Sequence record: NC_048204.1
DNA length: 50,343 bases
Reading direction: 5' to 3' (one strand)
From: Escherichia phage vB_Eco_mar001J1
Shown here piece by piece: positions 3,627 through 50,186 of the stretch. Positions within the stretch are counted from its first letter, which is position 1; every line of letters begins with the position of its first letter. The translations under genes and the position numbers were made by a program. Below the pieces are notes generated by a model. It was not told the origin of the DNA. It made no database searches and saw nothing but the letters and a program-made list of their open reading frames with translations.

Positions 3627-3670
3627 ATTATGCCCGACACTAGGCCGGGCGTTTTAACAAAAAGTGCTAT
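3627..3670 (-). promoter_or_regulatory. Cassette promoter candidate: 20-mer ATAGCACTTTTTGTTAAAAC + 18 bp (GC hairpin) + CATAAT
   Basis: Motif overlaps stop of 3670..3927; 22 bp from TTGTTA to the hexamer; almost identical to inverted copy at 50143-50186. Confidence 0.55.
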
Positions 3671-3927
3671 TAGTGGATCATTCCGTGCTGAAAATTCCAC
3701 GAATCGACAAACTCTTGCATGTCATTTCTGATTTGTTCGTGCCATTTTTCAAGCGGGAGTTTTCTTGTCTCCTCAAAGCTCATATCTAATGCGCTTGAAA
3801 ATTCCCACGGATCGCAATCAATCATCTTTTTCACGTTAGGATTTTTATCAAGTGCATCGCACACCATAGAGCGAAATAACAACCATTCGCCAGTTTCATT
3901 TAAATAAACGCTTCTCTCTTTTTTCAT
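3670..3927 (-). CDS. Hypothetical protein (85 aa)
   Basis: Track ORF with ATG start; compact spacing to Dam gene. Confidence 0.55.
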   Translation of the reverse strand: MKKERSVYLNETGEWLLFRSMVCDALDKNPNVKKMIDCDPWEFSSALDMSFEETRKLPLEKWHEQIRNDMQEFVDSWNFQHGMIH

Positions 3928-3931
3928 CGTG

Positions 3932-4657
3932 TTAGCTCCGTTTGCGTGCGCGACGTTCGGTTACAGAAGGGCAAATATCGCTGATCTTAACGTATCGCGT
4001 TTTCTGCTCCTCGCCTTCTTTAAGTTTGCGCATGACAAAAATCACGCTTCCCTTGTTGTTGCCCTGCACAGGCTCACCAGTCAATCCAGACACAAAGGCA
4101 ATTCTTCCGGTGCGGGAGTATTCTACTCCACCCTCTTCGTAAACCTCACCAGTGATCCAGATGATTTCAGCCGCGTTTTTCTGCGCCTCATAAAACCATG
4201 CTGTAGAGTTGTCGGCTGGCAACAAAACATCAATTTGGTTGTTGTGCTCCATTTGCTCAATTGCTTTCTTGATAAATGGAGTTGGGTTGCTGTACGGCGG
4301 GTTAAGCCATACGTGCTTGTTGCTACCCCACCAACGCTTTAAGCAGTTTGTTTCCTTGCTATAGAACTTCTCGCAAACTGCGTTTTCCTGGCTTGCTGCC
4401 GCGTCTAGATCGTATTCACCAAATTCTGATTCCATCCACTCCACGATCTCTTGAGGCGTGCTCCACATATCTCGCACAACGTCCGGCGTAGTGCTTCCAG
4501 CGTATCGGTTTCCGCTTACCTTATAATATTGATTTGGCTTTACTGCCTGGTAATGGCCTCCAGTTGCAAGGGCATTCCCTATAAACGTTTCTCTCTCCAA
4601 CTGCTCAAAGCTAACGAATGCGTCATGGGTGTCTTTATCTAAAATATCTTTAGCCAT
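3932..4657 (-). CDS. dam: DNA N6-adenine methyltransferase (phage Dam-like)
   Basis: NPPY catalytic motif (WLNPPYSNP); start placed at MAKDIL after GGAGA RBS, alternative ATG at 4684. Confidence 0.8.
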   Translation of the reverse strand: MAKDILDKDTHDAFVSFEQLERETFIGNALATGGHYQAVKPNQYYKVSGNRYAGSTTPDVVRDMWSTPQEIVEWMESEFGEYDLDAAASQENAVCEKFYSKETNCLKRWWGSNKHVWLNPPYSNPTPFIKKAIEQMEHNNQIDVLLPADNSTAWFYEAQKNAAEIIWITGEVYEEGGVEYSRTGRIAFVSGLTGEPVQGNNKGSVIFVMRKLKEGEEQKTRYVKISDICPSVTERRARKRS

Positions 4658-4697
4658 TTTCATTTCTCCGCTATTAAAAGCCATCTCGTGTTATTGA

Positions 4698-4741
4698 ATT
4701 ATGGCGCAATCCATCGCGCCAGTTTTAACAAAAAGTGCTAT
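4698..4741 (-). promoter_or_regulatory. Cassette promoter candidate (20-mer, hairpin GGCGCGATGGATTGCGCC, CATAAT)
   Basis: Same geometry as other copies; overlaps stop of 4738..5157. Confidence 0.55.
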
Positions 4742-5157
4742 TTAAGCATGTATTCAATAGCCAACTTAAACTGATTGAATCCGTAGGCTACCGCAGCGAA
4801 TCCTCCTAAGCTGCGAACGCGACGCAAAAAAGCCTTTTGTTCATCGCTGACTGGTGATGCTTTCCCCTTGCCTGATTTATTCACTCGTTTGATCTCAATC
4901 GCTGCAAAGGGGTATTTTCCGTTTAAACCAATCAGGATGATGAAATCGCTTACTCCCTTAACCAAGCCGGACTGCTGATCAATCATCGCCGTTGCTTTAG
5001 ACTTCTCATTCTCGTTTACCGTATGCCACGCCAGCAAATAAGGATGAGCATAAGTCAACCACTGAAAACTATCTATCTGGTGATTAACTTCCCTTCTCGT
5101 GTCGGTTGGATCCCTTTCGTAAAACTCAAGATAATCGCCTTTATCAGTTATAGCCAT
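4738..5157 (-). CDS. VRR-NUC domain nuclease
   Basis: PD-(D/E)XK-like segment GVSDFIILIG...AAIEIK in a 139-aa protein. Confidence 0.6.
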   Translation of the reverse strand: MAITDKGDYLEFYERDPTDTRREVNHQIDSFQWLTYAHPYLLAWHTVNENEKSKATAMIDQQSGLVKGVSDFIILIGLNGKYPFAAIEIKRVNKSGKGKASPVSDEQKAFLRRVRSLGGFAAVAYGFNQFKLAIEYMLK

Positions 5158-7154: not shown

Positions 7155-7186
7155 CTTAAACCTTTAAAAAATGCCATTTAGAGTAT

Positions 7187-7230
7187 ATAATAGACTCATT
7201 ACAATAAACTGTTTTAACAAAAAATGCTAT
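7187..7230 (-). promoter_or_regulatory. Cassette promoter candidate upstream of helicase gene (20-mer + 18 bp + TATTAT)
   Basis: ATAGCATTTTTTGTTAAAAC on coding strand, 22 bp from TTGTTA to TATTAT; divergent region also holds a plus-strand TATAAT at 7186-7191. Confidence 0.5.
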
Positions 7231-7241: not shown

Positions 7242-7718
7242 ATGAAAGATGCACGAATTGCAGTGTCTACGGGTGAGATCGACAAGCGCACTATTAACGG
7301 TAACAACGGAACGCGACGAGGTAAAGACAAAAAGCCACGAAAACACCGAACCGGATTTCTTATCCTGCGAGATGAGGTAAAAGCAAGCCTGAAATCTCGC
7401 CTTGACATTCTGATCGAGTATTACGGCGGTGTTCCTGCTATGGCTCGACGTCTACGCGTATCTCAGCAAGTCGTTAACCAGTGGCGAAAGCGTGGCATGA
7501 TTTCAGCCGCTGGAGCACAAAAGGTGCATAACGACTACAAATATAATGGGTGCAAAGGATACCGCGCATCATTTTGTCGTCCAGATCTGCGGTTTGATTC
7601 TAACGGCAAGCCTCTTACTACCCGTTGCGACAAATACGAAATGTTGCGCGTAGTCAAAAATTCAGACTACGAACCAGGCGGACGATTCTACAAAGGTGAT
7701 AACAGCACGAATAGCTAA
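7242..7718 (+). CDS. Cro/YdaS-family helix-turn-helix DNA-binding protein
   Basis: YGGVPAMARRLRVSQQVVNQWRKRGMIS segment; GAGGTGA RBS. Confidence 0.55.
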   Translation: MKDARIAVSTGEIDKRTINGNNGTRRGKDKKPRKHRTGFLILRDEVKASLKSRLDILIEYYGGVPAMARRLRVSQQVVNQWRKRGMISAAGAQKVHNDYKYNGCKGYRASFCRPDLRFDSNGKPLTTRCDKYEMLRVVKNSDYEPGGRFYKGDNSTNS

Positions 7719-7725
7719 TGATAAG

Positions 7726-7761
7726 GCCCAGCGAAATGATAATATTTGCTGGGCTTTTTTA
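7726..7761 (+). terminator. Rho-independent terminator
   Basis: GCCCAGC...GCTGGGC stem followed by TTTTTT. Confidence 0.7.
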
Positions 7762-8744: not shown

Positions 8745-8777
8745 GCATTTGAAAATGCTATTATCTGCATTGTCATT

Positions 8778-8792
8778 AGCAAAAAGTGCTAT
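8778..8792 (+). repeat. Partial inverted copy of cassette 20-mer (AGCAAAAAGTGCTAT) directly 5' of tail-fibre RBS
   Basis: Reverse complement of the ATAGCACTTTTTG core, abutting AGGAGG. Confidence 0.45.
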
Positions 8793-12609: not shown

Positions 12610-12639
12610 TTATCTGGTTGGCGAATTATATCACCAACC

Positions 12640-12662
12640 ATTATAAAAGTTTAGCTATTTGT
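12640..12662 (-). repeat. Degenerate cassette copy (AAATAGCTAAACTTTTATAATGG) upstream of erf
   Basis: Shares the AAATAGC head and contains TATAAT; spacing differs from the canonical cassette. Confidence 0.35.
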
Positions 12663-12670
12663 TTAGTTTG

Positions 12671-14152: not shown

Positions 14153-14195
14153 GTAGCACTTTTTGCTAAACGCCGCTTGTCGGATCGTGTATAGT
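14153..14195 (+). promoter_or_regulatory. Cassette promoter variant (TAGCACTTTTTGCTAAAC, TATAGT)
   Basis: One-base shorter A-run; TATAGT 21 bp after TTGCTA; upstream of lipoprotein gene. Confidence 0.45.
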
Positions 14196-36754: not shown

Positions 36755-36800
36755 TGTTAATCCTCCTTTGGTTAGATGCCTGATTATACCAAACAACGGG

Positions 36801-38804: not shown

Positions 38805-38836
38805 TGCGCTTTCCTCTGTTTCGCTTCAATAAGGGC

Positions 38837-39170: not shown

Positions 39171-39181
39171 TTCAGATCCCC

Positions 39182-39364: not shown

Positions 39365-39371
39365 TTTCACC

Positions 39372-39620: not shown

Positions 39621-39719
39621 AGTAGCGCCCTCATGCTATAAAGAAAAAGTAGCATTGATAATACCGCAATCATTGCGGAATGAAAATCAAAAGGTGGCTT
39701 AGGATTCGTTGCGTTATTG

Positions 39720-40100: not shown

Positions 40101-40130
40101 TGCGATTTCCTATTGCTTGTTGATGTGAGC

Positions 40131-40174
40131 ATTATAGCGGGGCCGATAACCCCGCGTTTAGCAATTCGTGCTAT
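40131..40174 (-). promoter_or_regulatory. Cassette promoter variant (AAATAGCACGAATTGCTAAAC, hairpin, perfect TATAAT)
   Basis: 22 bp between TTGCTA and TATAAT; overlaps stop of kinase-like gene. Confidence 0.5.
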
Positions 40175-40761: not shown

Positions 40762-40933
40762 GATTACTCTCCCCTTGCTTTCAAGACGGTAATTTCTGTT
40801 GTCTCGCTTAAAACCTTGAAATTTCTATTCTCGCTTTTGATCGTCATATTGACAATCATAACCTTACCGCGCTCTATCATGTCGGCAAGCTCTCGAAGGT
40901 GACATGCAGTTTTGGCAATCTCTTCGCTTTTTT

Positions 40934-41098
40934 GTCAAATGGTGGCAATTGCATTTATTTTTCTCCATAGTGTGAGTTGATATTATGCAGCATTTCGCGT
41001 CTATGGCGCTTCTTGCGTTGCTTGTTCACAAACTCTACATGCTCATCGTATCCGCGACGCTTCTTTTTGGTAACGATTTTTTCAAAGTTACGCATCAT
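40934..41098 (-). CDS. Small basic protein (54 aa)
   Basis: Manual translation MMRNFEKIVTKKKRRGY...; AAGGGGGA RBS. Confidence 0.35.
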
Positions 41099-41154
41099 TT
41101 CCCCCTTTAGGTTTTCTCAACATGGCGCACTGCATGAATGCGCCATAGCAAGAA

Positions 41155-41337
41155 TCACCAATCAAATTTCTGTTTGTCTCTGATGATCTCGTAAATTGCT
41201 AACCACACCCAAACAAACCAGAAAGCGAGAACTATTTTATCGTCCTTGTCTGTCGCGTCAGAATATTTCACCAATGCTCGGAACGCAAACAGGCCTGAAA
41301 TGTAAAGAAAAACAACCAAAAAAAAGCAAGTAACCAA
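41155..41337 (-). CDS. Small membrane protein (60 aa), apparent TTG start
   Basis: Two hydrophobic helices; no in-frame ATG; a 24-codon ATG ORF with better RBS spacing overlaps in another frame. Confidence 0.35.
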   Translation of the reverse strand: MVTCFFLVVFLYISGLFAFRALVKYSDATDKDDKIVLAFWFVWVWLAIYEIIRDKQKFDW

Positions 41338-41338
41338 A

Positions 41339-41602
41339 TCATTTATTTTCTCCTTCTACTACCAGCGTGTAAAGCAGAACAGGCTCTACCATGTCGCGGC
41401 GGCGTGGCTCTCGTGGCGAATCGCGACACATACATTTAACGTTTGCCACAATAACACGCACAAGATCGCTAAGTTTTAAGATTCCTTTACATCTAATAAC
41501 TTTGTATGCAACGTCTTCACCGTCGATGGAATGGATGGCAAAGTAACTTTGCGTGCCATCAATAATGTCTACAGCTTTAAAAAACTCGATCTTGTTAGCC
41601 AT
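41339..41602 (-). CDS. Hypothetical protein (87 aa)
   Basis: First gene after cassette promoter 41634-41677; GAGGA RBS. Confidence 0.55.
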   Translation of the reverse strand: MANKIEFFKAVDIIDGTQSYFAIHSIDGEDVAYKVIRCKGILKLSDLVRVIVANVKCMCRDSPREPRRRDMVEPVLLYTLVVEGENK

Positions 41603-41633
41603 AATTTAATCCTCGTTTGTTGTTGATGGGCTT

Positions 41634-41677
41634 ACTATACCGCAAGCCCGTTGAGACGTTTTAACAAAAAGTGCTAT
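41634..41677 (-). promoter_or_regulatory. Cassette promoter candidate (20-mer, hairpin GGGCTTGCGGTATAGTAAGCCC, TATAGT)
   Basis: 22-bp spacing; overlaps stop of 41678..41863. Confidence 0.5.
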
Positions 41678-41863
41678 TTAGAATTTTACCTCTTCCACAA
41701 GCTCAACCATCTTGTAACCAAGACGATAAGAGTCACCGAACAACAAGATCCCCATAAATTCATCGTGGCTTATTGACTCTTTGCCAACCGTTCTAAGCTC
41801 TCCGTTGTGAATCACAGTATCGCCGATCTTGATTTCTGATTTATGGACTAATTTCGTTTTCAT
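41678..41863 (-). CDS. Hypothetical protein (61 aa)
   Basis: AGGTGA RBS. Confidence 0.5.
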   Translation of the reverse strand: MKTKLVHKSEIKIGDTVIHNGELRTVGKESISHDEFMGILLFGDSYRLGYKMVELVEEVKF

Positions 41864-41878
41864 TTATTCACCTGCTAA

Positions 41879-42064
41879 TTAAAAGAAAGCTACATAGTTT
41901 GCAATGCCTTTGGCGTCGTCGTTTGGCATTGCTTTTACAGCCAAGTCATAACCCGCCTCTACCTTCTGCTTTGCTGTTTCTTCGTTGTAGCCCCAGATAA
42001 CCAGGATTTTAACTACGTTTTCTTTGTTCAGGACTTTAAGGTCTTTGGTGATGCGACGTGCCAT
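41879..42064 (-). CDS. Hypothetical protein (61 aa)
   Basis: First gene after cassette promoter 42097-42140; GAGGAAA RBS. Confidence 0.55.
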   Translation of the reverse strand: MARRITKDLKVLNKENVVKILVIWGYNEETAKQKVEAGYDLAVKAMPNDDAKGIANYVAFF

Positions 42065-42096
42065 TTTTGTTTCCTCAATCTCGTTTCGATGAGGCT

Positions 42097-42140
42097 ATTA
42101 TGCCAGGCTTTGCGCCTGGCGTTTTAACAAAAAGTGCTAT
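42097..42140 (-). promoter_or_regulatory. Cassette promoter candidate (20-mer, hairpin CCAGGCGCAAAGCCTGG, CATAAT, TCGAAACGA leader)
   Basis: Consensus copy; overlaps stop of lipoprotein gene. Confidence 0.55.
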
Positions 42141-42397
42141 TTAATATCTGTTGTGACTTGCTGGTGCATTACGTTCTTTCCGCTGTTGTACGTGCTATCC
42201 GTTGCGCCTTTGCAATTGGTGTAATAGATCGCGCGACCGTTATCATAGAATCTGTATGCTGTGCATCCGTCAACAGTGAACAGGCGACCGACTTTGAAAT
42301 CTGACTCCACGCCTACGACAACCGTTGATTCTGATGCCTTTTCGCATCCGGTCAGGAGTGTCATTGCCGCCAAAACGCCTATTAATGCCTTTTTCAT
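42137..42397 (-). CDS. Small lipoprotein (second Cor/Llp-like candidate)
   Basis: Signal peptide with lipobox LLTGC; strong GAGGAGG RBS. Confidence 0.55.
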   Translation of the reverse strand: MKKALIGVLAAMTLLTGCEKASESTVVVGVESDFKVGRLFTVDGCTAYRFYDNGRAIYYTNCKGATDSTYNSGKNVMHQQVTTDIK

Positions 42398-42861
42398 TAT
42401 TGCTCCTCCTCTTTGATGATTTCGCGGATCATATCCTGGTAGCGGCTTACGCCCTCACAAGCCCCAGCCAGCTTATCCCCTTCCAGGTCCACGATATTCG
42501 GGATTGTTGCCAGTAAGCGATCGGCAAGCTTTTTGATCGCCCTTGCCTTGATGGCTGGCAATTCTTCGGGCGTGATGATTTTCCTTTTCGATTCGCGGAC
42601 CATGCGGAAAACGTAAAATTTATCATCTTCCGTTTCCTCTACCTTGATGCTTACCCGACCTGCGGCCCTTACTTCTGGAACGCGGTTGATAATGGTCCGG
42701 CTGTAGGATGAACTGCGCGTGATCTTGTAACAGTCGTCACCGCTTAACATTCCGGCCAGGTCAATTAGTGACATTTTATACTCTTCAATATCGCCACTGG
42801 CCAGGCGGCGACCAAGCTCGCGAAGCCAATCGCAATAGTCCTTAGTGGTCTTCTGTTCCAT
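42397..42861 (-). CDS. Hypothetical protein (154 aa), first gene of the leftward early operon
   Basis: Start at MEQKTTKDY with GGAGG RBS; consensus promoter upstream. Confidence 0.55.
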   Translation of the reverse strand: MEQKTTKDYCDWLRELGRRLASGDIEEYKMSLIDLAGMLSGDDCYKITRSSSYSRTIINRVPEVRAAGRVSIKVEETEDDKFYVFRMVRESKRKIITPEELPAIKARAIKKLADRLLATIPNIVDLEGDKLAGACEGVSRYQDMIREIIKEEEQ

Positions 42862-42892
42862 TTCCTTTCCTCCAGTTGTTGACTGTTGGCGC

Positions 42893-42920
42893 ATTATAAA
42901 AGCTATTTGGTGCGTGTCAA
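42893..42920 (-). promoter_or_regulatory. Consensus sigma70 promoter (TTGACA, 16-bp spacer, TATAAT) for the leftward early operon
   Basis: Both hexamers match consensus exactly, about 30 bp upstream of the 42861 start. Confidence 0.65.
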
Positions 42921-43200
42921 TGTTTTTGTTGTATTCAAAACGTTACCAATATCGAAAAACTACAAAATCATGCGCAAGTTGTTGATTTCAGGGCTGTTAT
43001 TTTTCTGTTCACGCTGTTAACGCAATCCGCCGGAAAAAGTATATATACATATGCAATCCGCCGCGCGCGCAACTATCCATATATGCCCACACACAACCAC
43101 ACCATAGCCAACAAAAAGCACTGTAACAGTGAGAACAAAAAGAAAACATTATAGATATATATAAATAAATAATCTTTATTTTCAATGTATTATAGAGGAT
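42893..43200. repeat. Divergent control region B, homologous to 13757-14070
   Basis: Same ordered blocks as region A, including the AT-rich TATAGATATATATAAATAAATAAT tract. Confidence 0.6.
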
Positions 43201-43408
43201 TTTCTTTGTTTTTTCCGTTTTCGCTACACCGGAAAACCGCGCGGAAACACGCCGCCTGAAATCGGTAACAGGGGTGAACAAAAGACAACAACCACTGACA
43301 GCCAGGCGGAAAAGTGAGGCAAGAGGGGAAGGTTTCACTATCTCCCCTGCAACCAATGATTAAGCGTGATTACTTTTCTCATCAAATTTGCAAAGGCAAT
43401 CATCATTT

Positions 43409-43448
43409 TGACGTGATTTGATTACGAATGATTACTTCTGATTATTTC
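43409..43448. repeat. Tandem 10-bp direct repeats TGATTAC(N3), iteron-like
   Basis: TGATTACGAA, TGATTACTTC, TGATTATTTC in register, partial copy upstream and another GTGATTAC at 43365. Confidence 0.5.
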
Positions 43449-43475
43449 GATCACAATCCTGGCGCTAACCGTCAA

Positions 43476-43519
43476 ATAGCACTTTTTGTTAAAACTCAGG
43501 CCGTCTGATCGGGTACATT
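43476..43519 (+). promoter_or_regulatory. Cassette promoter candidate for the rightward early operon (20-mer, TACATT, TCGAAACGAA leader)
   Basis: 22 bp between TTGTTA and TACATT. Confidence 0.55.
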
Positions 43520-43553
43520 ACACACATCGAAACGAACCGCTCAGGAGATAGCA

Positions 43554-43826
43554 ATGAACATCAGCAAAACCACTTTCAACTTCTCTAAGCGTCACGGTCT
43601 GGATCTGACTGTTGAAGATTTTGGCGATGTTCTGCAACTCTGCATTTGGGAAGCAGATAACGATTGCGAGTGGCTTTGCTCTTATCGTATCAACTACGAT
43701 TGCTTGACCTGGCACGGCAATATCTATCTGCCGCAAGAAGTGAAGGAAGAATTGCCAGCGACTATCAACAACGAGGTTTTCTTGCGTCAGGTGCTGAAAT
43801 TTATCAGTGAGGAGATCAAGAAGTAA
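43554..43826 (+). CDS. Hypothetical protein (90 aa)
   Basis: GGAG RBS. Confidence 0.55.
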   Translation: MNISKTTFNFSKRHGLDLTVEDFGDVLQLCIWEADNDCEWLCSYRINYDCLTWHGNIYLPQEVKEELPATINNEVFLRQVLKFISEEIKK

Positions 43827-44092
43827 TGGCGGTGATTACCGAAAATGATTTGGATCTGGCGGAGGCATTTTGCAGGGCCGCCAGGGCTAACCTGGATGTG
43901 GCTACTAAATTTCTTCCGGTGCGCCCACTCTTTTCGTGTGCGCCCGTGAATAAACCGACTCGCGTAATGATCGTGATTGAAGGTGATGGCCTGTACGCTG
44001 AAAAGACGTTCCACATCAGCAACATTAAGGGTCGTGCTGATTTTATCAATGATGTTTGCTTATTGCAGGAGAAGAAAAAATGTTGGATGTGA
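43826..44092 (+). CDS. Hypothetical protein (88 aa)
   Basis: TAATG start/stop overlap. Confidence 0.5.
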   Translation: MAVITENDLDLAEAFCRAARANLDVATKFLPVRPLFSCAPVNKPTRVMIVIEGDGLYAEKTFHISNIKGRADFINDVCLLQEKKKCWM

Positions 44093-44289
44093 TCAAGAAA
44101 GCACATGAGATGGGTATGGATGTTTCAATCTGCGACGCTTCCGCGCGTCACCCGTCAGCACCTGAAAATATGGTTGTTGTCATCGTGCATAATCACCGCT
44201 ATGAGTGCCGTGCGATGTTTGAGAAGCAGGATAAAGAGTCTCAACGCCGCTTTATCAACGAAGCCTGTGAACTGTATGGGCGTATCTGA
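44080..44289 (+). CDS. Hypothetical protein (69 aa)
   Basis: Start at MLDVIKK with AGGAGAAG RBS. Confidence 0.5.
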   Translation: MLDVIKKAHEMGMDVSICDASARHPSAPENMVVVIVHNHRYECRAMFEKQDKESQRRFINEACELYGRI

Positions 44290-44503
44290 AATGTTCAAGA
44301 AATTGTTATGGCTGTACCGTTCCAGGCGCAACAAGGGATATTGCAGGGGCACGGAAAGTAATCTTGATCGCGCTTATAAATACTGCCTGTTGTTGCTCGC
44401 CAGTCTGCCGGAAAACAGGAAGGAATATATTGCACTGCGAGAAATAACAATGCGGATATATAGTTACCGCAATAAACTATACGTCTTTAAATCTTTACGA
44501 TAA
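44276..44503 (+). CDS. Hypothetical basic protein (about 70 aa), start uncertain (44276 or 44291)
   Basis: Track ORF 44105..44503 trimmed to the first ATG beyond the upstream gene; weak RBS. Confidence 0.35.
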   Translation: MGVSEMFKKLLWLYRSRRNKGYCRGTESNLDRAYKYCLLLLASLPENRKEYIALREITMRIYSYRNKLYVFKSLR

Positions 44504-44515
44504 GGAGTAATAACC

Positions 44516-44779
44516 ATGAAAATTAATGCACCTATTCCAGTTAAGCGCAAAGCACGTTTGCTCAACAACGGATGTTACGCCCTGCGGCCTGCATTTAAGG
44601 ATCGCACATTTCCGGTTATCGTTAACGTGTCTCACGTAAGCCGTAGCGGAAATCTGGTATTCGTTAAAGGTGAAGATCTGGCGGAGCTTGTATTCTATGG
44701 CGGTGCTAACGGCGAACCGCTCGGATTCTGGCTTGTAGATCCGTTAACTGGAGAGCGTGAAATCGAATTTCTGGACTAA
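44516..44779 (+). CDS. Hypothetical protein (87 aa)
   Basis: AAGGAG RBS. Confidence 0.55.
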   Translation: MKINAPIPVKRKARLLNNGCYALRPAFKDRTFPVIVNVSHVSRSGNLVFVKGEDLAELVFYGGANGEPLGFWLVDPLTGEREIEFLD

Positions 44780-44823
44780 ATAGCACTTTTTGTTAAAAAC
44801 GATGCGCTGCTGATTGTTATAGT
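44780..44823 (+). promoter_or_regulatory. Cassette promoter candidate (20-mer + TGtTATAGT)
   Basis: 22-bp spacing; the TATAGT has an upstream TG (extended -10). Confidence 0.5.
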
Positions 44824-44854
44824 TATCGCATCTACAACAAACGAGTATTTAAAA

Positions 44855-45052
44855 ATGGAAAATCAGGTTGATGTTAAAGTTGTTAAGCGCGACAAGTCTC
44901 ACGAAAAAGGTTTGTTTAAGAAAGGTGCTGAAATCACAATTGACCTTGATGATATGGAGGCGTACCACTCAGGGCTAACTTGGAACGTGCGCAAATGTGA
45001 AAACGGACTGTTCAAGTTAAATGGCTTTGAAACATACATGGAGATCATTTAA
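44855..45052 (+). CDS. Hypothetical protein (65 aa)
   Basis: Track ORF, ATG start. Confidence 0.5.
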   Translation: MENQVDVKVVKRDKSHEKGLFKKGAEITIDLDDMEAYHSGLTWNVRKCENGLFKLNGFETYMEII

Positions 45053-45333
45053 TGGCATACGAAAAGAATGATTTCAATAGCGCAAGAGAAAAAATCAAGG
45101 CGGCGCGAATTAAACAGCGCGCCTTTAGATTCTGGCTTGACTATCGCGATCTAAGAAAAGAGATGGATATGCTTATTAAGACTGGTAGCGCATTCTGCTC
45201 TAATAGAACGGTTTGGCGAAATATGAATGCGCAGTACGGCCAGGGTAAAATTCGTGTATTTGGCGGCGCTGTTGATGCTTATGTATTTAGCGCAACAAGG
45301 GCTGTAAGTTTTAACGTAACTGGGATCGCATAA
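45052..45333 (+). CDS. Hypothetical protein (93 aa)
   Basis: TAATG overlap. Confidence 0.5.
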   Translation: MAYEKNDFNSAREKIKAARIKQRAFRFWLDYRDLRKEMDMLIKTGSAFCSNRTVWRNMNAQYGQGKIRVFGGAVDAYVFSATRAVSFNVTGIA

Positions 45334-45545
45334 TGGCAAAGCAATTAAAACTTAAATGCGTAGAAACCTATAACTCAACATGGACATTTACGCCAGGAAA
45401 AGAATATCCGCTAATGGGTTATCTCAAAGACGACCCTCATGTAATTTCAGATAATGGCTTTTACCTTTATTTAAAGAAATACAAAGATGGATATGTTGGT
45501 ACTGGTTTTCCAGGCCATAAATTCAAGATGAAAAATAAGAAATGA
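45333..45545 (+). CDS. Hypothetical protein (70 aa)
   Basis: TAATG overlap. Confidence 0.5.
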   Translation: MAKQLKLKCVETYNSTWTFTPGKEYPLMGYLKDDPHVISDNGFYLYLKKYKDGYVGTGFPGHKFKMKNKK

Positions 45546-45653
45546 GGCTTTTTATATTCAAAAATGCCTGGATGGTGGCGGTTGCAAATGACCATTACGG
45601 CGGCGACGGAAAAAGAGCGCCACGACACTCTTACTTTAACTGAGGAATATAGA

Positions 45654-45890
45654 ATGACTGCAAAATCAATCAAAGTTGAAAATATTATGGCGGCTGTTAC
45701 GGCACATCACCGCGTTATTGTTCGACTTGATAAATCTAGCGGAATCAACCAGTTAACCATCACAGAATGTAAGGGCGGTTACACTGTCGGTATTCATCCT
45801 GGCGGTAAGTTGCGTAAATTCAGCGAGGCTGGATTAAAAGAAATGCTGAATGAATACTCATTCTATATTCAAAATTGGAAGGCTGCATAA
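45654..45890 (+). CDS. Hypothetical protein (78 aa)
   Basis: Start at MTAKSIKV with GAGGA RBS. Confidence 0.45.
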   Translation: MTAKSIKVENIMAAVTAHHRVIVRLDKSSGINQLTITECKGGYTVGIHPGGKLRKFSEAGLKEMLNEYSFYIQNWKAA

Positions 45891-45936
45891 TAAATTGATG
45901 GGCGCTAATGCGCGCCCTTAAATATAGGAATGAACG

Positions 45937-46047
45937 ATGAATAAAATTACTTATATTACTCTTTCTGTTGTTGTTTTTATGCTTGGAGTCACTATTGCGG
46001 CGTCATGTGTGGCATTAATTTATATTATGTTTAAGGTGATGATCTGA
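45937..46047 (+). CDS. Small membrane peptide (36 aa, below the ORF-track cutoff)
   Basis: Manual translation MNKITYITLSVVVFMLGVTIAASCVALIYIMFKVMI; AGGAATGA RBS. Confidence 0.4.
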   Translation: MNKITYITLSVVVFMLGVTIAASCVALIYIMFKVMI

Positions 46048-46271
46048 TGAGTCAAGACGGTTTTTTTGAGCGCCTTCAAATGGCAGAAGATTCCGGACTA
46101 AATAAAGAGGCGGCGCTTGAAGTTGCATATAAAATTAAGACTCTTGATGAGGCTTTAGGTGATATGGATATGGATCTTGAATCAAGCGCAATATTTGCAG
46201 ATCCCACTATGATTGTTAATGATTGTGGATGCGATTTCGATCCTGGTTGTCCGCGCTGTTTTCCGTTTTGA
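46047..46271 (+). CDS. Acidic protein with C-terminal Cys cluster (CGCDFDPGCPRC)
   Basis: Track ORF; directly upstream of the methyltransferase-like gene. Confidence 0.5.
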   Translation: MSQDGFFERLQMAEDSGLNKEAALEVAYKIKTLDEALGDMDMDLESSAIFADPTMIVNDCGCDFDPGCPRCFPF

Positions 46272-46281
46272 GGTAATGACG

Positions 46282-46992
46282 ATGTATAAAGGTTTAATAT
46301 TCTCACTATTTGATGGATCTGGTAAGGCCGTTAAAGACTGGGCTGATAATGGCTATAAGTGCATTTGCTTTAATGCTGACGGTGGCGATCACGGTGATTA
46401 CCAGTCAGTGCGCATACAGCATGAGAATATCGAATACGTTAACGTCTGGATTGATGATGCTTTTTATGTTAAGGCAATCAATAATGAGTGGGGCAATCCT
46501 GATTTTATTATGGCCTTCCCACCATGCACCGACCTTGCAAATAGCGGATCTCGCCATTGGGCCAAAAAACGCCTTGAGAATCCATCGTTCCAGGATGAGG
46601 CCGCCGACACTTGCAGAATAGCGGCTGATATAGGTGATTATTTCGGTGTTCCTTACATGATCGAAAATCCGGTTGGCAAGTTGTCAACGTTATGGCGTAA
46701 GCCTAATTATACGTTCCATCCGTGCGATTACGCTGGCTATCTGCCGGAAGATGATAAACACCCCGACTTCCCTGATATTATTCCGGCGCGGGATCGCTAC
46801 TTTAAGAAAACGTGTCTCTGGACTGGCAACGGCTTTGTTATTCCTCCACGCGCTTTAATCCTGCCGAAAGAGGAAGACAAAGATAATCCAGGCTGGGCCA
46901 AAACTGGCGGCAAGTCATCGCGCACAAAGATGATCCGCTCCCTCACTCCGCGCGGCTTTGCTCGCGCCGTCTTTGAGTCAAACTCAAAATAG
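46282..46992 (+). CDS. DNA cytosine-C5 methyltransferase-like protein, unusually short with PCT in place of PCQ
   Basis: Motif I LFDGSG, motif IV AFPPCTDLA, motif VI ENPVGK; only 236 aa, no obvious target-recognition domain. Confidence 0.55.
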   Translation: MYKGLIFSLFDGSGKAVKDWADNGYKCICFNADGGDHGDYQSVRIQHENIEYVNVWIDDAFYVKAINNEWGNPDFIMAFPPCTDLANSGSRHWAKKRLENPSFQDEAADTCRIAADIGDYFGVPYMIENPVGKLSTLWRKPNYTFHPCDYAGYLPEDDKHPDFPDIIPARDRYFKKTCLWTGNGFVIPPRALILPKEEDKDNPGWAKTGGKSSRTKMIRSLTPRGFARAVFESNSK

Positions 46993-47032
46993 CACTTTTT
47001 GTTAAAAGCCAGGTGTAAAAACCTGGCATAAT
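46989..47032 (+). promoter_or_regulatory. Cassette promoter candidate (20-mer, hairpin CCAGGTGTAAAAACCTGG, CATAAT, CCGAAACGAAAGGAG leader)
   Basis: 22-bp spacing; overlaps TAG stop of the methyltransferase-like gene. Confidence 0.55.
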
Positions 47033-47063
47033 CACTTCACCGAAACGAAAGGAGAAATAAACG

Positions 47064-47291
47064 ATGACAAAGAAGAGAACAATAAAATGCACAAAAGTTT
47101 ACCACCACATGAACAGCGTAAAGCCAGGTCAGCATTTTAAGGAAGGGAAACGCTATGAGATAATTATGGGAAGGGTTTTAGGCGCTGTAGCTGGTTACGT
47201 TGTTGATGCTCAAGGTGAGCAATGGACTCTTGAAAGACGCGAGGTGGGATTTAAATGTGCAATAGCGGAATTTCAAGGCAAGTACTTCTAA
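47064..47291 (+). CDS. Hypothetical protein (75 aa)
   Basis: AAGGAGA RBS. Confidence 0.55.
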   Translation: MTKKRTIKCTKVYHHMNSVKPGQHFKEGKRYEIIMGRVLGAVAGYVVDAQGEQWTLERREVGFKCAIAEFQGKYF

Positions 47292-47776
47292 ATTTATTTA
47301 TATATGAAAATGGTCGTCTATTATGGAAAAGCCCATCAGGAAGACGGGCAAAAATTGGCGATGAGGCAGGTTATATAACTAAAAACGGATATAGACGTAT
47401 AGGTATTGGTGGCAGAGAGTATCCGGCGCATTGGATTGTTTGGTGGATGCATGGAAAAACAATACCAAAAGGAATGGAGATAGATCACGTGAATCACATA
47501 AGAGATGACAATAGAATCGAAAACCTCCGGCTTGTCACAAGAAAACAAAACTCACAAAACCACACAAGGAGATCGACAAATAAATCTGGTTATACTGGCG
47601 TGATGTGGAATAAGAGGGTGTCTAAATGGTGCGTACAAGTAACTGTTGATGGCAGGTGTATTTCTGGTGGTTATCATGCATCAATTGATAGCGCTGTATC
47701 ATCAAGAGATGCTATTTGGAAAAAGTACGGATTCCACGAAAACCACGGAAGCGAGAAGCCTTATGATCAAGACTGA
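47255..47776 (+). CDS. HNH-AP2 homing endonuclease
   Basis: MEIDHVNHIRDDNRIENLR HNH motif; SGYTGV...W AP2-like segment. Confidence 0.75.
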   Translation: MCNSGISRQVLLNLFIYENGRLLWKSPSGRRAKIGDEAGYITKNGYRRIGIGGREYPAHWIVWWMHGKTIPKGMEIDHVNHIRDDNRIENLRLVTRKQNSQNHTRRSTNKSGYTGVMWNKRVSKWCVQVTVDGRCISGGYHASIDSAVSSRDAIWKKYGFHENHGSEKPYDQD

Positions 47777-47984
47777 ATATCGCTATAAGGTTACTAATTC
47801 AGCAACAAAAACCTTCAAGCCTGGCGATATAGTCAGGCCCATCAAAAAAACTGCGGTAGGTTGGCTGATTGGTTTTTCATATCATAAGGCGCTTTACTTT
47901 ACGTTTAAGGATGGGATTGCAGGAGAATGCTACAGCGACAGCCAGCCTGATCGACTTCTGGTTGCAATAGAGCGGATCAAATAG
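47763..47984 (+). CDS. Hypothetical protein (73 aa)
   Basis: Start at MIKTEYRYK overlapping the HNH gene stop. Confidence 0.45.
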   Translation: MIKTEYRYKVTNSATKTFKPGDIVRPIKKTAVGWLIGFSYHKALYFTFKDGIAGECYSDSQPDRLLVAIERIK

Positions 47985-48024
47985 CACTTTTTGACAAAAC
48001 GGGGTAGTATTGGGCAGTTAAAAT
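47981..48024 (+). promoter_or_regulatory. Cassette promoter variant (ATAGCACTTTTTGACAAAAC, TAAAAT)
   Basis: TTGACA replaces TTGTTA; same 22-bp spacing. Confidence 0.5.
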
Positions 48025-48052
48025 TTACGGCCCACAAAGGAGAAGCTAACGA

Positions 48053-49633
48053 ATGTTTTCATTAGAAACGAACAAATTAACTCCACAGCAAATAATCGCT
48101 ATGGCTGAAAGCCAGAACCTTTCGCCAGTTCGCGTATCAATTCAGGCTAACGGCTATCGCCAGTCGTCAAGCTTTTGGGGCGACGTGAAGGATGTAAATA
48201 GCGGTCACGATCGCTACCCCGTAATTTCTCTTGGTAATGATATTGATGTTGTCGGCAAGTTATCACGCAGTATTGCGCGATCAGTTCAATTCCCTGAATC
48301 ATCGGCTTACATGCACTTTATCGGCTGCATTTCTGCCTCTATGCTTGGACGCTTTACAGTTGACTATCACGGAACCGATCAGCCGACTGCGCTTTACGTC
48401 GTTACAAGCCAGCCGCCGTCAACTGGTAAATCTGCGATCAACAGTATGGCTATTGCTCCGATGATTGCGGAAGTTGAGAAGATCAACGAGCAACGCCGCA
48501 AGGAAAGAAAGAAAATACAGGCAAAGTTGGCAGGTCTTGCAAAGGAGATGAAAAGCGAAAGATCAGGCGCTGATATGGAATCTCTATACCAGGAAAAAGA
48601 GGATCTGGAGGAGAAGCTGGAAAAGATGTGTGATATAACTTTCCCTGTTTCAGATACCACTCCAGAAGGATTGGCGAAAATCAACAACAAGCAAGGTAAC
48701 TTTGCCGTAATATCTGACGAAGCAACAAGTATTAACAGCCTGTTAGGCTTGACCTATGCCAATAGCGAAAGGAAGACTAACAGCGAGCTAGTGCTTAAGG
48801 CGTGGGATAATGGTCACGTATCAATTGCCCGTGCTAATGCTGACAATAACATGAGTTTTCGCGCGCTTGGATGTATGAGCGTTATAGCCCAGGATGAAAC
48901 GATAAGCGGAATCATGGACGCTGGATCGCGCGGTATCGGTGTGAGTGAGCGCTTTTTGTTGGTCCGCGAAGAATCATTCTTAGGCCGTCGCTCATTCATT
49001 GATGAAAATGGTGATTCTACCTATGAGGCGGTGGATTCTGAATTGAAAGCCCAATATTATCAATTGGTGCATAACATCATGAGCGAATCAAATATATCGC
49101 TGAAAATAAGCCGTTCAGCTATGCGAGTGCTCAACATTGCTCGTCAGGATATGGAACCGCATCTTGCAGACGGCGGAAAGTATTCTCATACAATGTTGCG
49201 CGGTGCGCTGGGTAAAATGGATAAACAGGTGATCAGGCTTGCTTCCGTCCTGCATGTTATCCGTAACTGGTTTAATCCTGCCGGATACCCGCAGAAGTCG
49301 AAAGAGATCGGCGTGGAAACAATGCAAGAGGCGTTGATAATGTTTCAGGAATTGAGCAAAACATACATTAGCGCCGCCAATGCTTCTGGTTATGCTGGTG
49401 ATGATGCTGAAATGGGTAAATTGATTGAATTGATCACGAGGCACGGCAAGGCTAACAAAGGGATCCTGAATATTCGCGCCCTGTACGAATCAGCGAGAAA
49501 GGTAAAACCTTTCGTTGGTCAGGCTGGCGTAATGAAGAGGATAGAAGGGCACTTGCTGCCAATGCTGGAAGAAAGAAATTATGTTTGTGTGATTAATGGT
49601 GTTATTTTTGTCAATCCAATACTGCTGGGATGA
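48053..49633 (+). CDS. P-loop NTPase of unknown role (possibly replication-associated)
   Basis: Walker A-like SQPPSTGKSA and Walker B-like AVISDEAT; 526 aa; central coiled-coil. Confidence 0.4.
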   Translation: MFSLETNKLTPQQIIAMAESQNLSPVRVSIQANGYRQSSSFWGDVKDVNSGHDRYPVISLGNDIDVVGKLSRSIARSVQFPESSAYMHFIGCISASMLGRFTVDYHGTDQPTALYVVTSQPPSTGKSAINSMAIAPMIAEVEKINEQRRKERKKIQAKLAGLAKEMKSERSGADMESLYQEKEDLEEKLEKMCDITFPVSDTTPEGLAKINNKQGNFAVISDEATSINSLLGLTYANSERKTNSELVLKAWDNGHVSIARANADNNMSFRALGCMSVIAQDETISGIMDAGSRGIGVSERFLLVREESFLGRRSFIDENGDSTYEAVDSELKAQYYQLVHNIMSESNISLKISRSAMRVLNIARQDMEPHLADGGKYSHTMLRGALGKMDKQVIRLASVLHVIRNWFNPAGYPQKSKEIGVETMQEALIMFQELSKTYISAANASGYAGDDAEMGKLIELITRHGKANKGILNIRALYESARKVKPFVGQAGVMKRIEGHLLPMLEERNYVCVINGVIFVNPILLG

Positions 49634-50025
49634 TTATGTTTTTGCTTGATCTGTATAAATGGTGTGAGTCATACGACTGGTTTAACAGGCAGCACATAGC
49701 CAAATTTATCTATAAGCATAGAGAATGTGAGCGGCTCGCACGGGCCGCCGGACTTACGCCGCGAATGTTCGCCAGCCTTACATCTAAGGAATTTTGCGCA
49801 AGAATGATGACGGCTGGCTATATAGATGGGGTCTGCGGTAAATACTGGTCCAAAGGATCGTCAAAGCGGCCTTTCGGATTCGAGTTGTATAGCTTGGATG
49901 GTATGCGCAACGACTGGATCAGGGATATGGCTAGAATAGGGGAGATGGGCGATGATGAATTGTTCCAGGCAAAAGCTAATAGACAAGTTCTTGAAGCACT
50001 GCGCCGTAAATTCAATATCACATGA
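49630..50025 (+). CDS. Hypothetical protein (131 aa)
   Basis: ATGA overlap with upstream gene. Confidence 0.5.
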   Translation: MIMFLLDLYKWCESYDWFNRQHIAKFIYKHRECERLARAAGLTPRMFASLTSKEFCARMMTAGYIDGVCGKYWSKGSSKRPFGFELYSLDGMRNDWIRDMARIGEMGDDELFQAKANRQVLEALRRKFNIT

Positions 50026-50146
50026 GGATTTTATTCATGCTTTACTTACGCTACTTTATTCAGATATGCGCGCTTTTAGCACCACTGAACATGTTTTATG
50101 CAATGATGATGGTGTATTACTGGTTACGGTAAAGCGTATGGAATAG
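49952..50146 (+). CDS. Hypothetical protein (64 aa) overlapping the preceding gene in another frame
   Basis: TAG stop is embedded in the cassette 20-mer like other cassette-preceding genes. Confidence 0.4.
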   Translation: MMNCSRQKLIDKFLKHCAVNSISHEDFIHALLTLLYSDMRAFSTTEHVLCNDDGVLLVTVKRME

Positions 50147-50186
50147 CATTTTTTGTTAAAACGCCCGGCCTAGTGTCGGGTATATT
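50143..50186 (+). promoter_or_regulatory. Cassette promoter candidate (20-mer, hairpin GCCCGGCCTAGTGTCGGG, TATATT, TCGAAACGAAAC leader)
   Basis: Drives the gene at 7..231 across the circular junction; near-identical to the inverted copy at 3627-3670. Confidence 0.55.

Follow-up and report, generated by a model that had tools for sequence, protein, structure and literature searches.

Intergenic repeats of a T1-like coliphage resemble Escherichia coli marboxes in class II promoter geometry

The stress activators MarA, SoxS and Rob of E. coli bind a site known as the marbox, and class II promoters are defined by a marbox in the forward orientation that overlaps the −35 region. RamA occupies such a site at micF, centered near −41 on CACT-7X-AAA. 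The class II marbox promoters of E. coli (micF, sodA, nfo, inaA, and fumC) have a forward, asymmetric 20-bp marbox over −35, centered near −41 and 18 bp from the −10 hexamer, with no usable −35; the phage cassettes in this report share all of these properties. Intergenic direct repeats of 21 nt have been described in phage TLS by DeGiulio, Ramsey, Kropinski, and Misra in 2024 (PMC11447400), who reported the repeat in T1, Rtp, and Rogue1 as well. Those authors recognized only three σ70-like promoters and left the repeat unexplained, offering three possible roles for it: stoperator, enhancer site, or UP element. The TLS repeat, aaATAGCACnnnTTGnTAAAA, as presented there, is the same element as ours: it is intergenic, directed with transcription, and ~76 nt from start codons. 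The consulted passages of the TLS account contain no −10 at a fixed 18 bp, no marbox match, no reversed copies at late promoters, and no RNA-level hairpins. What is new here is the marbox identity of a repeat already published with its function stated as unknown, and the marbox reading is a testable answer to that published question.

The window analyzed is the complete 50,343-nucleotide genome of Escherichia phage vB_Eco_mar001J1, a T1-like coliphage of the Drexlerviridae. The 20-mer ATAGCACTTTTTGTTAAAAC occurs 13 times in it at up to three mismatches, compared to 0.02 occurrences expected, and 0 of 100 shuffled sequences gave 13. A first-pass annotation had reported 14 promoter-like cassettes, and every one is present where it had placed them, although the 20-mer is degenerate in three (19572−, 40131−, and 14153+). 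Each cassette consists of the 20-mer, 18 bp (17 bp at 14153+), and a hexamer with A2 and T6; the 22 and 21 bp previously counted from TTGTTA are these same distances. The description of the hexamer as TAnnnT holds for A2 and T6 but not for all copies, with CATAAT in 5 of the 14. As had been noted, the 20-mer usually sits at the stop codon of the upstream gene, with an overlap of up to 4 nt, and the TAG in aTAG is often the stop itself. From the start of the 20-mer to the start codon there are 72 to 84 nt in 13 of the 14 cassettes and 61 nt at 19572−. Enrichment outside coding DNA, on which the earlier proposal depended, was confirmed: coding DNA makes up 88.7% of the genome, yet all 18 copies with at least 13 matches to the 14 positions of ATAGCACnnnTTGnTAAA lie between genes. 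The count of 14 was too low, however, with four strong copies overlooked, at 25471-25490 (+), 29223-29242 (+), 8773-8792 (−), and 34050-34069 (−), along with about three weak ones, at 7702 (+), 12648 (−), and 19003 (−).

On the minus strand, the class II-type cassette upstream of gp61 (3627-3670; 20-mer at 3651-3670) has a GC hairpin inside the 18-bp spacer and −10 CATAAT at 3627-3632. The cassette upstream of dam (gp63; 4698-4741) also has a spacer hairpin, which shows covariation at the orthologous site in eight phages, and −10 CATAAT; the TAG of its 20-mer is the gp64 stop codon. Upstream of the helicase gene gp65 (7187-7230; TATTAT) there is no hairpin, and the cassette faces the gp66 promoter TTTAAA-17-TATAAT (7163-7191, +). 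The variant 20-mer ATAGCACAATATGTTAAAGC precedes the HNH gene gp76, followed by the tail J gene (19572-19615; TACAAT). Hairpins extend across the −10 at gp26 (38837-38880; TAAAGT, with TG at −15/−14) and gp34 (41634-41677; TATAGT) and occupy the spacer at gp36 (42097-42140; CATAAT); the 20-mer of the gp30 cassette (40131-40174; TATAAT), ATAGCACGAATTGCTAAACG, matches 14 of 14 marbox consensus positions. On the plus strand, cassettes lie upstream of gp72-74 (14153-14195; GTAGCACTTTTTGCTAAACG, 17-bp gap, TATAGT), of gp39, with which the rightward early arm begins (43476-43519; TACATT), of gp43, which belongs to Pfam Gp54, an antiviral trigger family (44780-44823; TATAGT), of gp49 (46989-47032; spacer hairpin, CATAAT), where the dcm stop codon is the TAG of the 20-mer, of the helicase gene gp52 (47981-48024; a TTGACA variant, TAAAAT), and of gp54 (50143-50186; TATATT), whose ATG at 50223 corresponds to window position 7 because the ends overlap by 127 bp.

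Among the weak copies, the cassette upstream of primase gene gp67 (7702-7745, +) has an 18-bp gap, hexamer TAATAT, and the 20-mer ACAGCACGAATAGCTAATGA, which matches 12 of 14 positions of the marbox consensus and 11 of 14 of the phage consensus; its −10 is spanned by a hairpin plus a T-run. The cassette upstream of the Erf gene gp70 (12625-12667, −), with ACTAAACAAATAGCTAAACT, a 17-bp gap, and TATAAT, has orthologous sites in T1 and KP36. A marbox-like 20-mer, ACAGCACAAAAGGTTAAAAG (19003-19022, −), ends 2 nt 5′ of the tail J start codon and is kept in T1, Rtp, and Rogue1.

The cassette is kept in eight Drexlerviridae genomes. In six genomes drawn from five subfamilies or genera, 85 of 112 copies have the exact 18-bp gap, compared to ~6% in controls. 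This fixed −10 distance argues for the earlier view that the element is promoter-like and that its block lies too far upstream for a σ70 −35, and a factor bound near −40 is probably needed. The seventh base 3′ of the −10 is A in 71 of the 85 copies, consistent with a leader beginning ~7 nt past the hexamer, as had been proposed. G is found at −14 in 79% of copies and TG at −15/−14 in 39%. These frequencies, the near-consensus −10 sequences, the T5 and A4 tracts in the block, and the UP-like role suggested by the TLS authors (PMC11447400) are what one would expect of factor-independent promoters firing through the −10 or extended −10, with the 20-mer acting by intrinsic DNA properties such as α-CTD contact, as in a UP element, or T5/A4-tract curvature, and such promoters would function in any host. 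We nonetheless consider this improbable. Positions G4, C5, A6, C7, and G13 of the 20-mer are near-invariant across the eight genomes, and the block spans −50 to −31, whereas the A/T tracts of UP elements occupy −59 to −38; for these two reasons the UP-like alternative raised in the first-pass annotation fails. Furthermore, an asymmetric layout of 20 bp, with one turn between its two sub-sites, is what protein sites typically show, and a UP-type role would not account for the reversed copies over late promoters.

The 20-mer matches the published marbox consensus, AYNGCACNNWNNRYYAAAYN, at 13 to 14 of 14 specified positions and the Grainger-lab form gcannwwntgnnaaa at 10 of 10. For a random 20-mer the probability of 13/14 to the marbox consensus is 9.4e-6, and the window contains 17 sites with at least 13/14, compared to 0.93 expected. 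The K-12 micF marbox, ACAGCACTGAATGTCAAAAC, is identical to the phage block at 15 of 20 positions, with all mismatches at degenerate positions, and lies 18 bp from its −10, as do those of sodA, nfo, and inaA. When a matrix was built from the 112 phage sites, with host sites left out, the marboxes of micF, marRAB, and the rob promoter ranked first, second, and third of 35,512 E. coli positions, and that of fumC ranked seventh. Dyad symmetry is absent (8/20), and one helical turn separates the conserved sub-blocks GCAC and TAAA, the layout expected of a monomer with two HTH motifs. Judged by sequence, the 20-mer is thus a marbox, near-perfect and placed with class II geometry, which allows the class of the factor to be named. 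Phage sites vary less than the marbox consensus allows: A3, T11, and T12 are near-invariant, which could reflect a different reader.

We lean toward the interpretation that the forward cassettes are host-activator-dependent class II promoters of the MarA/SoxS/Rob type. Each would be a compact activator-dependent σ70 promoter, with the 20-mer as a high-affinity forward marbox at about −50 to −31 (center −40.5) in place of the −35 hexamer, a transcription start 7 nt 3′ of the −10, on the A that is conserved in CAtc, and a transcript that passes through a conserved A/C-rich leader and a Shine-Dalgarno sequence to the ATG. A pre-existing host monomeric two-HTH activator, likely the constitutive Rob or, upon induction, MarA or SoxS, would occupy the marbox and recruit RNA polymerase by contacts with σ70 region 4 and the α-CTD, as at micF. 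When six phages were translated in six frames, no MarA/SoxS/Rob homolog was found (best E 0.08), and Pfam scans likewise gave no MarA-like protein. Counting against a host activator, Rob is mostly sequestered in unstressed cells, and MarA and SoxS are scarce. Many copies have a good −10 or extended −10, and these might fire unaided. The host-activator interpretation suggests that the phage runs most of its early genes via a host stress regulator.

The main caveat to this interpretation comes from relatives with non-enteric hosts and from a phage-encoded rival. The T1-like Pseudomonas phage Motto has 18 intact cassettes and Vibrio phage Vc1 has 15, hosts as recorded; if those host records are right, the cassette would function without enteric MarA, SoxS, or Rob. 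Its retention in these phages favors a class II-type promoter whose 20-mer is read by a phage protein, of the gp66 family or gp38, a possibility that we regard as unlikely but worth weighing. The product of gp66 (7242-7718, +), an all-α Cro-like HTH regulator, is kept in 8 of 8 genomes, with homologs 50 to 56% identical and always divergent from the helicase cassette. Its N-terminal arm, DKRxxNGNNGTRRGxD, is invariant and basic and could perhaps read the 20-mer, with gp66 or gp38 then acting near −42 like λ cI at PRM. Only 10 nt separate the gp66 start codon from the 20-mer, which is the sole conserved non-core element of the gp66 regulatory region, as expected for autoregulation. The other candidate, gp38 (42397-42861, −), is a DUF7174 protein, not AraC-type, with a weak winged-helix-like domain in its model; it lies behind the only perfect σ70 consensus promoter in the scanned 36000-50343 region, TTGACA-16-TATAAT (42893-42920, −), which probably drives gp38-gp37 as immediate-early genes. 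However, the gp66 core is an all-α Cro fold (3bd1 TM 0.72 to 0.74; N15 Cro-DNA), and proteins of this fold bind (pseudo)palindromes as dimers, whereas the 20-mer has no dyad; the recognition-helix region also differs between lineages while the 20-mer is constant. Any phage reader would make the marbox match and the 18-bp geometry a coincidence (P ~1e-5 before geometry), would be made late for cassettes that precede the earliest genes, and would leave site-bearing late promoters unrepressed at time zero.

The hairpins had been described as filling the gap. They are real, but family-wide they lie more often across the −10. They are absent from 11 of 85 copies and favor the sense strand, 67 versus 16, a bias indicating that their action is on sense RNA and can be separated from the 20-mer; selection on the spacer hairpins operates at the RNA level. 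With an activator binding the marbox, the spacer would be free to encode an RNA hairpin because a −35 is unnecessary, and the hairpin would form only in read-through transcripts from the upstream gene, as a terminator or 3′-end protector. On the reverse complement a T-run follows the hairpin, and several adjacent hairpins in T1 were annotated as rho-independent terminators. Both observations, and the stoperator idea of the TLS authors (PMC11447400), would suit a non-promoter repeat, whether a roadblock, part of a terminator, or a replication, packaging, or recombination signal. That explanation is very hard to credit given the fixed 18-bp −10 distance, the conserved start-site context, the constant 72 to 84 nt to start codons, and the copies that lack a hairpin altogether; moreover, the phage is virulent, with no repressor identified.

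The claim that all copies precede early or non-structural genes is not fully right, since four of the overlooked copies are at late structural genes, in non-class-II positions within the start regions of these genes. Three overlap apparent core promoters. The predicted σ70 promoter of the major capsid gene (29220-29247, −) has TTGACG (29247-29242), a 16-bp spacer, and TGcTATCAT with the −10 at 29225-29220, and its spacer is a reversed 20-mer (29223-29242, + strand); in KP36 a promoter has been annotated at the corresponding site. In the tail-fiber (gp68) promoter region (8756-8792), an extended −10, TGcTATTAT (8756-8764, +), is accompanied by a reversed 20-mer at 8773-8792 (minus-strand copy), at ~+2 to +21, and the arrangement is the same in T1. 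Upstream of the portal gene, a forward 20-mer (34050-34069, −) matches the phage consensus at 14 of 14 positions, and because TATAAT is only 4 bp downstream, this marbox lies over the −35/spacer; the portal leader has a hairpin plus a T-run. The fourth copy is a full cassette in antisense orientation (25471-25514, +; 18 bp, TAGATT), located ahead of the tail chaperone gene in the interval that separates it from the major tail gene. This cassette faces a bidirectional terminator ~35 nt off and is conserved in T1. The overlap with three late core promoters suggests repression. The factor that activates the forward cassettes would keep the capsid, tail-fiber, and portal promoters off early through these reversed or displaced sites, and repression at time zero would call for a pre-existing factor.

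Several other systems invite comparison. The L5 stoperators of mycobacteriophages resemble the 20-mer in having many oriented, asymmetric, intergenic copies but have no fixed −10 distance and need the repressor of a temperate phage. λ cI at PRM and CII at PRE are activators bound near −40 that touch σ region 4. They provide the model for a phage-encoded factor, but their sites are dyad or direct repeats, and the phage 20-mer is neither. At T4 middle promoters, an upstream MotA box takes the place of the −35 and works together with a TAnnnT −10, with σ appropriation by AsiA. A conserved upstream box in place of −35 is common to both, but the MotA box is centered at −30, 11 to 13 bp from the −10, and depends on the phage proteins MotA and AsiA, whereas our box is centered at −40.5, 18 bp from the −10, and MotA/AsiA-type phage proteins were not found.

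The late-gene sites have a close parallel in MarA-repressed host promoters. The K-12 rob promoter has a marbox-like site 12 bp from its −10, TGcTATTAT, so that the marbox covers core elements, and the phage capsid, portal, and tail-fiber sites likewise lie in the spacer or start region. The MarA-repressed purA and hdeA promoters also have a marbox over core elements. The same is true of pbpG (PMC12052159). Relative to these, the phage uses both orientations, and repression is predicted. Compared with the class II promoters of E. coli, the phage sites approach the consensus more closely than most host sites do and are almost the same sequence throughout, and, unlike those of the host, they number 15 to 22 per 50-kb genome and are fused to an upstream stop codon, a spacer RNA hairpin, and a conserved leader.

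All 14 cassettes listed in the first-pass annotation were found by direct sequence check, and their layout is as it described: the conserved 20-mer, a gap of 18 bp (17 bp in one copy), and a hexamer whose second base is A and whose sixth is T. The sequence ATAGCACTTTTTGTTAAAAC occurs 13 times in the window at ≤3 mismatches, against 0.02 expected, and the 20-mer starts 72 to 84 nt ahead of the start codon in 13 of the 14 cassettes and 61 nt ahead in the one at 19572 (−). The intergenic placement also held: the genome is 88.7% coding, all 18 copies that match ATAGCACnnnTTGnTAAA at 13 or more of 14 positions are intergenic, and they overlap the upstream gene in its stop codon only. The count of 14 was too low, with strong copies overlooked at 25471 (+), 29223 (+), 8773 (−), and 34050 (−) and weak ones at 7702 (+), 12648 (−), and 19003 (−). 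Nor do all copies precede early or nonstructural genes, since the start regions of late structural genes hold four of them.

The window spans the complete genome of phage vB_Eco_mar001J1 (Drexlerviridae, Tempevirinae, Warwickvirus) and is 100% identical to NC_048206.1. Positions 1-127 are identical to 50217-50343, a 127-bp circular-assembly overlap that leaves a unique genome of 50,216 bp. The window is a rotated form of the GenBank record, its position 1 being record position 28976, and gp54 is divided between the two window ends. Immediately downstream of one cassette, gp43 (44855-45052, +) encodes a small early protein that matches PF25180, “phage antiviral trigger protein Gp54” (E = 1.7e-38).

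By sequence and geometry, the 20-mer is a class II marbox, a forward-oriented site for the E. coli activators MarA, SoxS, and Rob placed over the −35 position. It agrees at 13 of 14 specified positions with the marbox/soxbox consensus AYNGCACNNWNNRYYAAAYN, as quoted in PMC2064960, and at 10 of 10 with the ChIP-derived form gcannwwntgnnaaa (PMC12052159). The copy ATAGCACGAATTGCTAAACG at 40155-40174 matches the consensus at 14 of 14 positions, as do other copies. Among 112 sites from the window and phages T1, TLS, Rtp, Rogue1, and KP36, 108 match at 12 to 14 positions (14 of 14 in 14 sites, 13 of 14 in 77). A random 20-mer reaches 13 of 14 with a chance of 9.4e-6, and the window has 17 such sites compared to 0.93 expected. 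At the variable positions of the phage block, 8 to 10 and 14, the marbox consensus itself has N, W, or Y, and the block lacks dyad symmetry. The micF marbox of E. coli K-12, ACAGCACTGAATGTCAAAAC, is identical to the phage block at 15 of 20 positions, and all the differences fall at degenerate consensus positions. Run across 35,512 positions of E. coli DNA, a weight matrix made solely from the 112 phage sites ranked the micF marbox first, marRAB second, a site in the promoter of rob (a listed MarA target) third, and fumC seventh, ranks that hold within the scanned regions, picked for containing marboxes, and not genome-wide.

In a class II promoter a forward marbox overlaps the −35 position (PMC12052159), and our positional test was a marbox centre between −36 and −55. 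The cassettes have GCAC distal and AAA proximal to the −10 hexamer on the strand of the downstream gene, as micF does, and the marbox centre falls at −40.5, assuming a transcript start 7 nt past the −10. In the K-12 sequence, 18 bp separate the micF marbox from its −10, TAGAAT, and the same gap is present at sodA, nfo, and inaA. Because the gap and the forward orientation are those of the host promoters, we assign class II geometry to the phage cassette. The motif search in other T1-like genomes that had been proposed at first pass showed that the cassette is kept, with 16 to 22 copies each in T1, TLS, Rtp, Rogue1, and Klebsiella phage KP36. Of the 112 copies in the six genomes, 85 have a gap of exactly 18 bp, 6 one of 17 bp, and 8 one of 19 bp, compared to ∼6% per gap in controls. 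The consensus reads aAATAGCAC(nnn)TTG(y)TAAAAc, N12, tGn, TATAAT, ..cC.CAtc.AAAc.AAa.AaGGAa, with G at −14 in 79% of copies, TG at −15/−14 in 39%, and A as the seventh base past the −10 in 84%. On these sequence patterns, the cassette is real and very probably a promoter. When IMG/VR was scanned with the cassette pattern for occurrences beyond the Drexlerviridae, the matches listed were almost only T1-like contigs of 44 to 52 kb.

A leader, CAtCgAAACgAAAc, lies ∼7 to 30 nt past each cassette and begins at the predicted transcript start (for example, 42070-42090 on the minus strand and 43526-43545 on the plus strand). It is A/C-rich and unstructured, is kept in all eight genomes (the six plus phages Motto and Vc1), and might enhance translation or act as an initial-transcribed-sequence signal. 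An Rfam scan of the window, leader included, matched no family.

The repeat itself has already been published (PMC11447400); what is new here, from the sequence comparison, is its reading as a class II marbox. That 2024 re-annotation of phage TLS describes 18 intergenic 21-nt repeats, aaATAGCACnnnTTGnTAAAA, ∼76 nt ahead of start codons, with others in T1, Rtp, and Rogue1; its authors found only three sigma70-like promoters, offered three possible roles for the repeat (stoperator, enhancer site, or UP element), and named its function an open question. The window cassettes are repeats of this type, having the consensus aaATAGCACnnnTTGnTAAAA in an intergenic position, co-oriented with the downstream gene and ∼76 nt from its start codon. 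Our search of the openly readable literature found no link of the 20-mer to a known protein site or marbox, no transcript map for the Drexlerviridae, and no transcript-start, binding, or genetic data on the cassette.

Several other readings of the block fit poorly. A UP-like element, also offered at first pass, would be an A/T-only tract from −59 to −38, whereas the block spans −50 to −31 and has a near-invariant GCAC and G13. A sigma54 promoter (TGGCAC-N5-TTGC, in which 10 bp separate GG from GC and the start lies 12 bp downstream) was rejected, as the block reads TAGCAC-N3-TTG, with spacing 2 bp short, AG in place of GG, and a conserved −10 a further 18 bp away. Taking TTGTTA as a −35 leaves no −10 17 bp away. 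In a middle promoter of the T4 MotA type, the box is centred at −30 and lies 11 to 13 bp from the −10, compared to the 18-bp gap here; MotA and AsiA Pfam families were absent from the best 25 families listed for the 78 coding sequences and from the 10 early proteins scanned.

The spacers often fold. In 85 cassettes, folding of the 36 nt between the 20-mer and about +2 gave an average energy of −10.2 kcal/mol (average z-score, −3.2); of the hairpins, 48 span the −10 (3′ arm at −6 to −1), 20 lie inside the spacer, 6 end within the −10, and 11 are weak. Folds of the sense strand are the more stable in 67 cassettes and those of the antisense strand in 16 (p = 3e-9), sense folds contain 90 G-U pairs compared to 39 in antisense folds, and one orthologous site compared across eight phages has compensatory changes in four of six pairs, which together argue that the hairpins are selected in RNA. 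Since RNA initiated at the cassette begins just 3′ of them, they would form only in RNA reading through from the upstream gene, and they are probably terminators or 3′-end protectors. Three of them were called terminators by the T1 annotators; a terminator consensus scan called one spacer hairpin, and a T-rich −10/discriminator directly follows the hairpin only where the latter is wholly in the spacer. A class II promoter does not need a −35, so that the spacer is free to carry such a signal.

As to the protein that reads the site, a hidden Markov model of the three E. coli proteins MarA, SoxS, and Rob found no homologue in six-frame translations of the six phages (best E values, 0.08 to 0.16), and Pfam searches gave no MarA/SoxS/Rob family among the best 25 families listed for the 78 coding sequences or in 10 small early proteins. 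The genes marA, soxS, and rob are present in the E. coli K-12 sequence. Host activators exist before infection, and with no MarA-type protein found in the phage, they are the most economical candidates; dependence of the cassette on host MarA/SoxS/Rob is the best-supported mechanism, and we lean modestly toward it. The cassettes are also intact in Pseudomonas phage Motto (18 copies; 45% GC), which reportedly infects 32 of 50 P. aeruginosa isolates, and in Vibrio phage Vc1 (15 copies), recorded on V. cholerae. Either an activator equivalent to MarA/SoxS/Rob is present in these hosts, or the recorded hosts are unreliable, or the cassette works without need of those proteins. Factor-independent action of the cassette seems to us very improbable. 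T1-like genomes of ∼45% GC are recorded on Vibrio, Pseudomonas, and Campylobacter, including 20 “Campylobacter phage” records. T1-like phages are notorious contaminants, and so these host assignments deserve re-checking.

The 20-mer could instead be read by a phage-encoded protein, which we think unlikely. The Cro-like regulator gp66 (7242-7718, +) is kept alongside the motif in all eight genomes, and the 20-mer is the sole conserved noncore element of its control region, where no separate palindromic gp66 operator is conserved. However, the structure of gp66, which is the only regulator annotated, is an all-alpha Cro fold preceded by an invariant N-terminal arm predicted to be disordered; it is not the two-HTH fold, which led us to reject gp66 as a MarA-type reader, and the recognition-helix region of gp66 differs between lineages while the 20-mer is constant. 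A second candidate, the DUF7174 protein gp38 (42397-42861, −), has only a weak winged-helix-like domain in its predicted structure.

The gp66 promoter, TTTAAA-17-TATAAT (+), and the helicase cassette (−) share a palindromic −10, TATTATA (7163-7230), so that the two should exclude each other, and the marbox of that cassette lies within the gp66 leader at about +13 to +32, an arrangement kept in eight genomes. Residues 11 to 34 of gp66 hold a motif, DKRxxNGNNGTRRGxDKKxRK, that 35 homologues share without change; this stretch, which lies ahead of the Cro-fold core and is predicted to be disordered, might serve as an arm for the DNA minor groove or as a site of protein contact. A perfect sigma70 promoter, TTGACA-16-TATAAT, at 42893-42920 (−), the sole 12/12 match in the scanned region 36000-50343, drives gp38 and gp37; the gp38 counterpart is also first behind a promoter in KP36, and gp38-gp37 is thus probably an immediate-early unit. 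The ∼600 bp of noncoding DNA between the divergent early arms (42862-43475) carries AT-rich runs, tatatatacatatg and tatagatatatataaataaataatc, as well as GC-rich blocks, and might serve as an origin or pac region; similar noncoding gaps are present in T1, TLS, and Motto.

The four copies outside class II use are all in late structural gene start regions, three of them over an apparent core promoter and one in antisense orientation. The major capsid promoter (29220-29247, −) is TTGACG, 16 bp, TGcTATCAT, and its spacer is a reversed 20-mer; the arrangement is kept in T1 and TLS, degenerate in KP36, and missing from Rtp and Rogue1, and the KP36 annotators marked a promoter at the equivalent site. 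At the tail-fibre gene (8756-8792), a terminator precedes an extended −10, TGcTATTAT, with a reversed 20-mer after it at about +2 to +21, as in T1. The portal gene copy (34050, −) is a forward 20-mer just 4 bp from TATAAT. The tail chaperone copy (25471, +), kept in T1 (18850-), has full class II geometry but is antisense and faces the bidirectional terminator of the major tail gene. Placement of a marbox over core promoter elements defines a recognised regulatory class (PMC12052159), and we infer from these positions that one factor may activate early promoters and repress late ones; repression at time zero would favour a factor already present, i.e., a host factor.

In the region 25491-25550 (+), the predicted start of the antisense cassette at 25471 (+) is ∼35 nt ahead of that terminator, which predicts either a very short antisense RNA or a convergent promoter reinforcing termination. 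The predicted 5′ end of the capsid mRNA (29195-29218, −) has a stable hairpin, GGCCGTTAAATGTAACGGCC, followed by UUUUAUGGAGG; this hairpin may be a 5′ stabiliser or attenuator of the most abundant late message, and T1 and TLS have its equivalent. A marbox-like 20-mer at 19003-19022 (−) ends 2 nt ahead of the tail J start codon, with no space for a −10, and is kept in T1 (25021+), Rtp (23313+), and Rogue1 (21764+).

T1-like phages are among the commonest coliphages and are therapy candidates, and to our knowledge they encode no RNA polymerase or sigma factor of their own. Their annotators found almost no sigma70 promoters. A wider reading, which we hold to be quite unlikely as a whole, is that the expression programme of this entire virulent-phage family is wired to one host stress-activator family. 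Rob, MarA, or SoxS already present in the cell would act at ∼15 to 20 class II marbox promoters per genome to turn on early and middle genes at DNA entry, while late genes would be kept off by the same site over core elements of the capsid, portal, and tail-fibre promoters and by the antisense copy ahead of the tail chaperone gene. Loss of the activator would bring about the early-to-late switch, MarA and SoxS being short-lived Lon substrates once host transcription stops; alternatively, hundreds of replicated marbox-rich genomes would titrate it. Salicylate, oxidants, and bile salts would then tune phage growth.

The class II marbox reading is itself a specific, cheaply testable mechanism that names the proteins to test. 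It predicts that phage expression responds to salicylate, redox-cycling drugs, bile salts, and decanoate, and as these inducers also raise antibiotic efflux, phage susceptibility would be linked to an antibiotic-resistance regulon. It would also make these lytic phages an unusually clear instance of genome-wide use of a host stress activator. The cassette is a compact, portable, inducible promoter-plus-terminator unit that may be of use in engineering.

Among known systems, micF is bound by RamA near −41 on CACT-7X-AAA, a pattern that the phage block reproduces exactly. The marbox of K-12 marRAB is reversed, as expected of a class I promoter. The K-12 rob promoter, with its marbox over core elements, resembles the phage copies at late genes.
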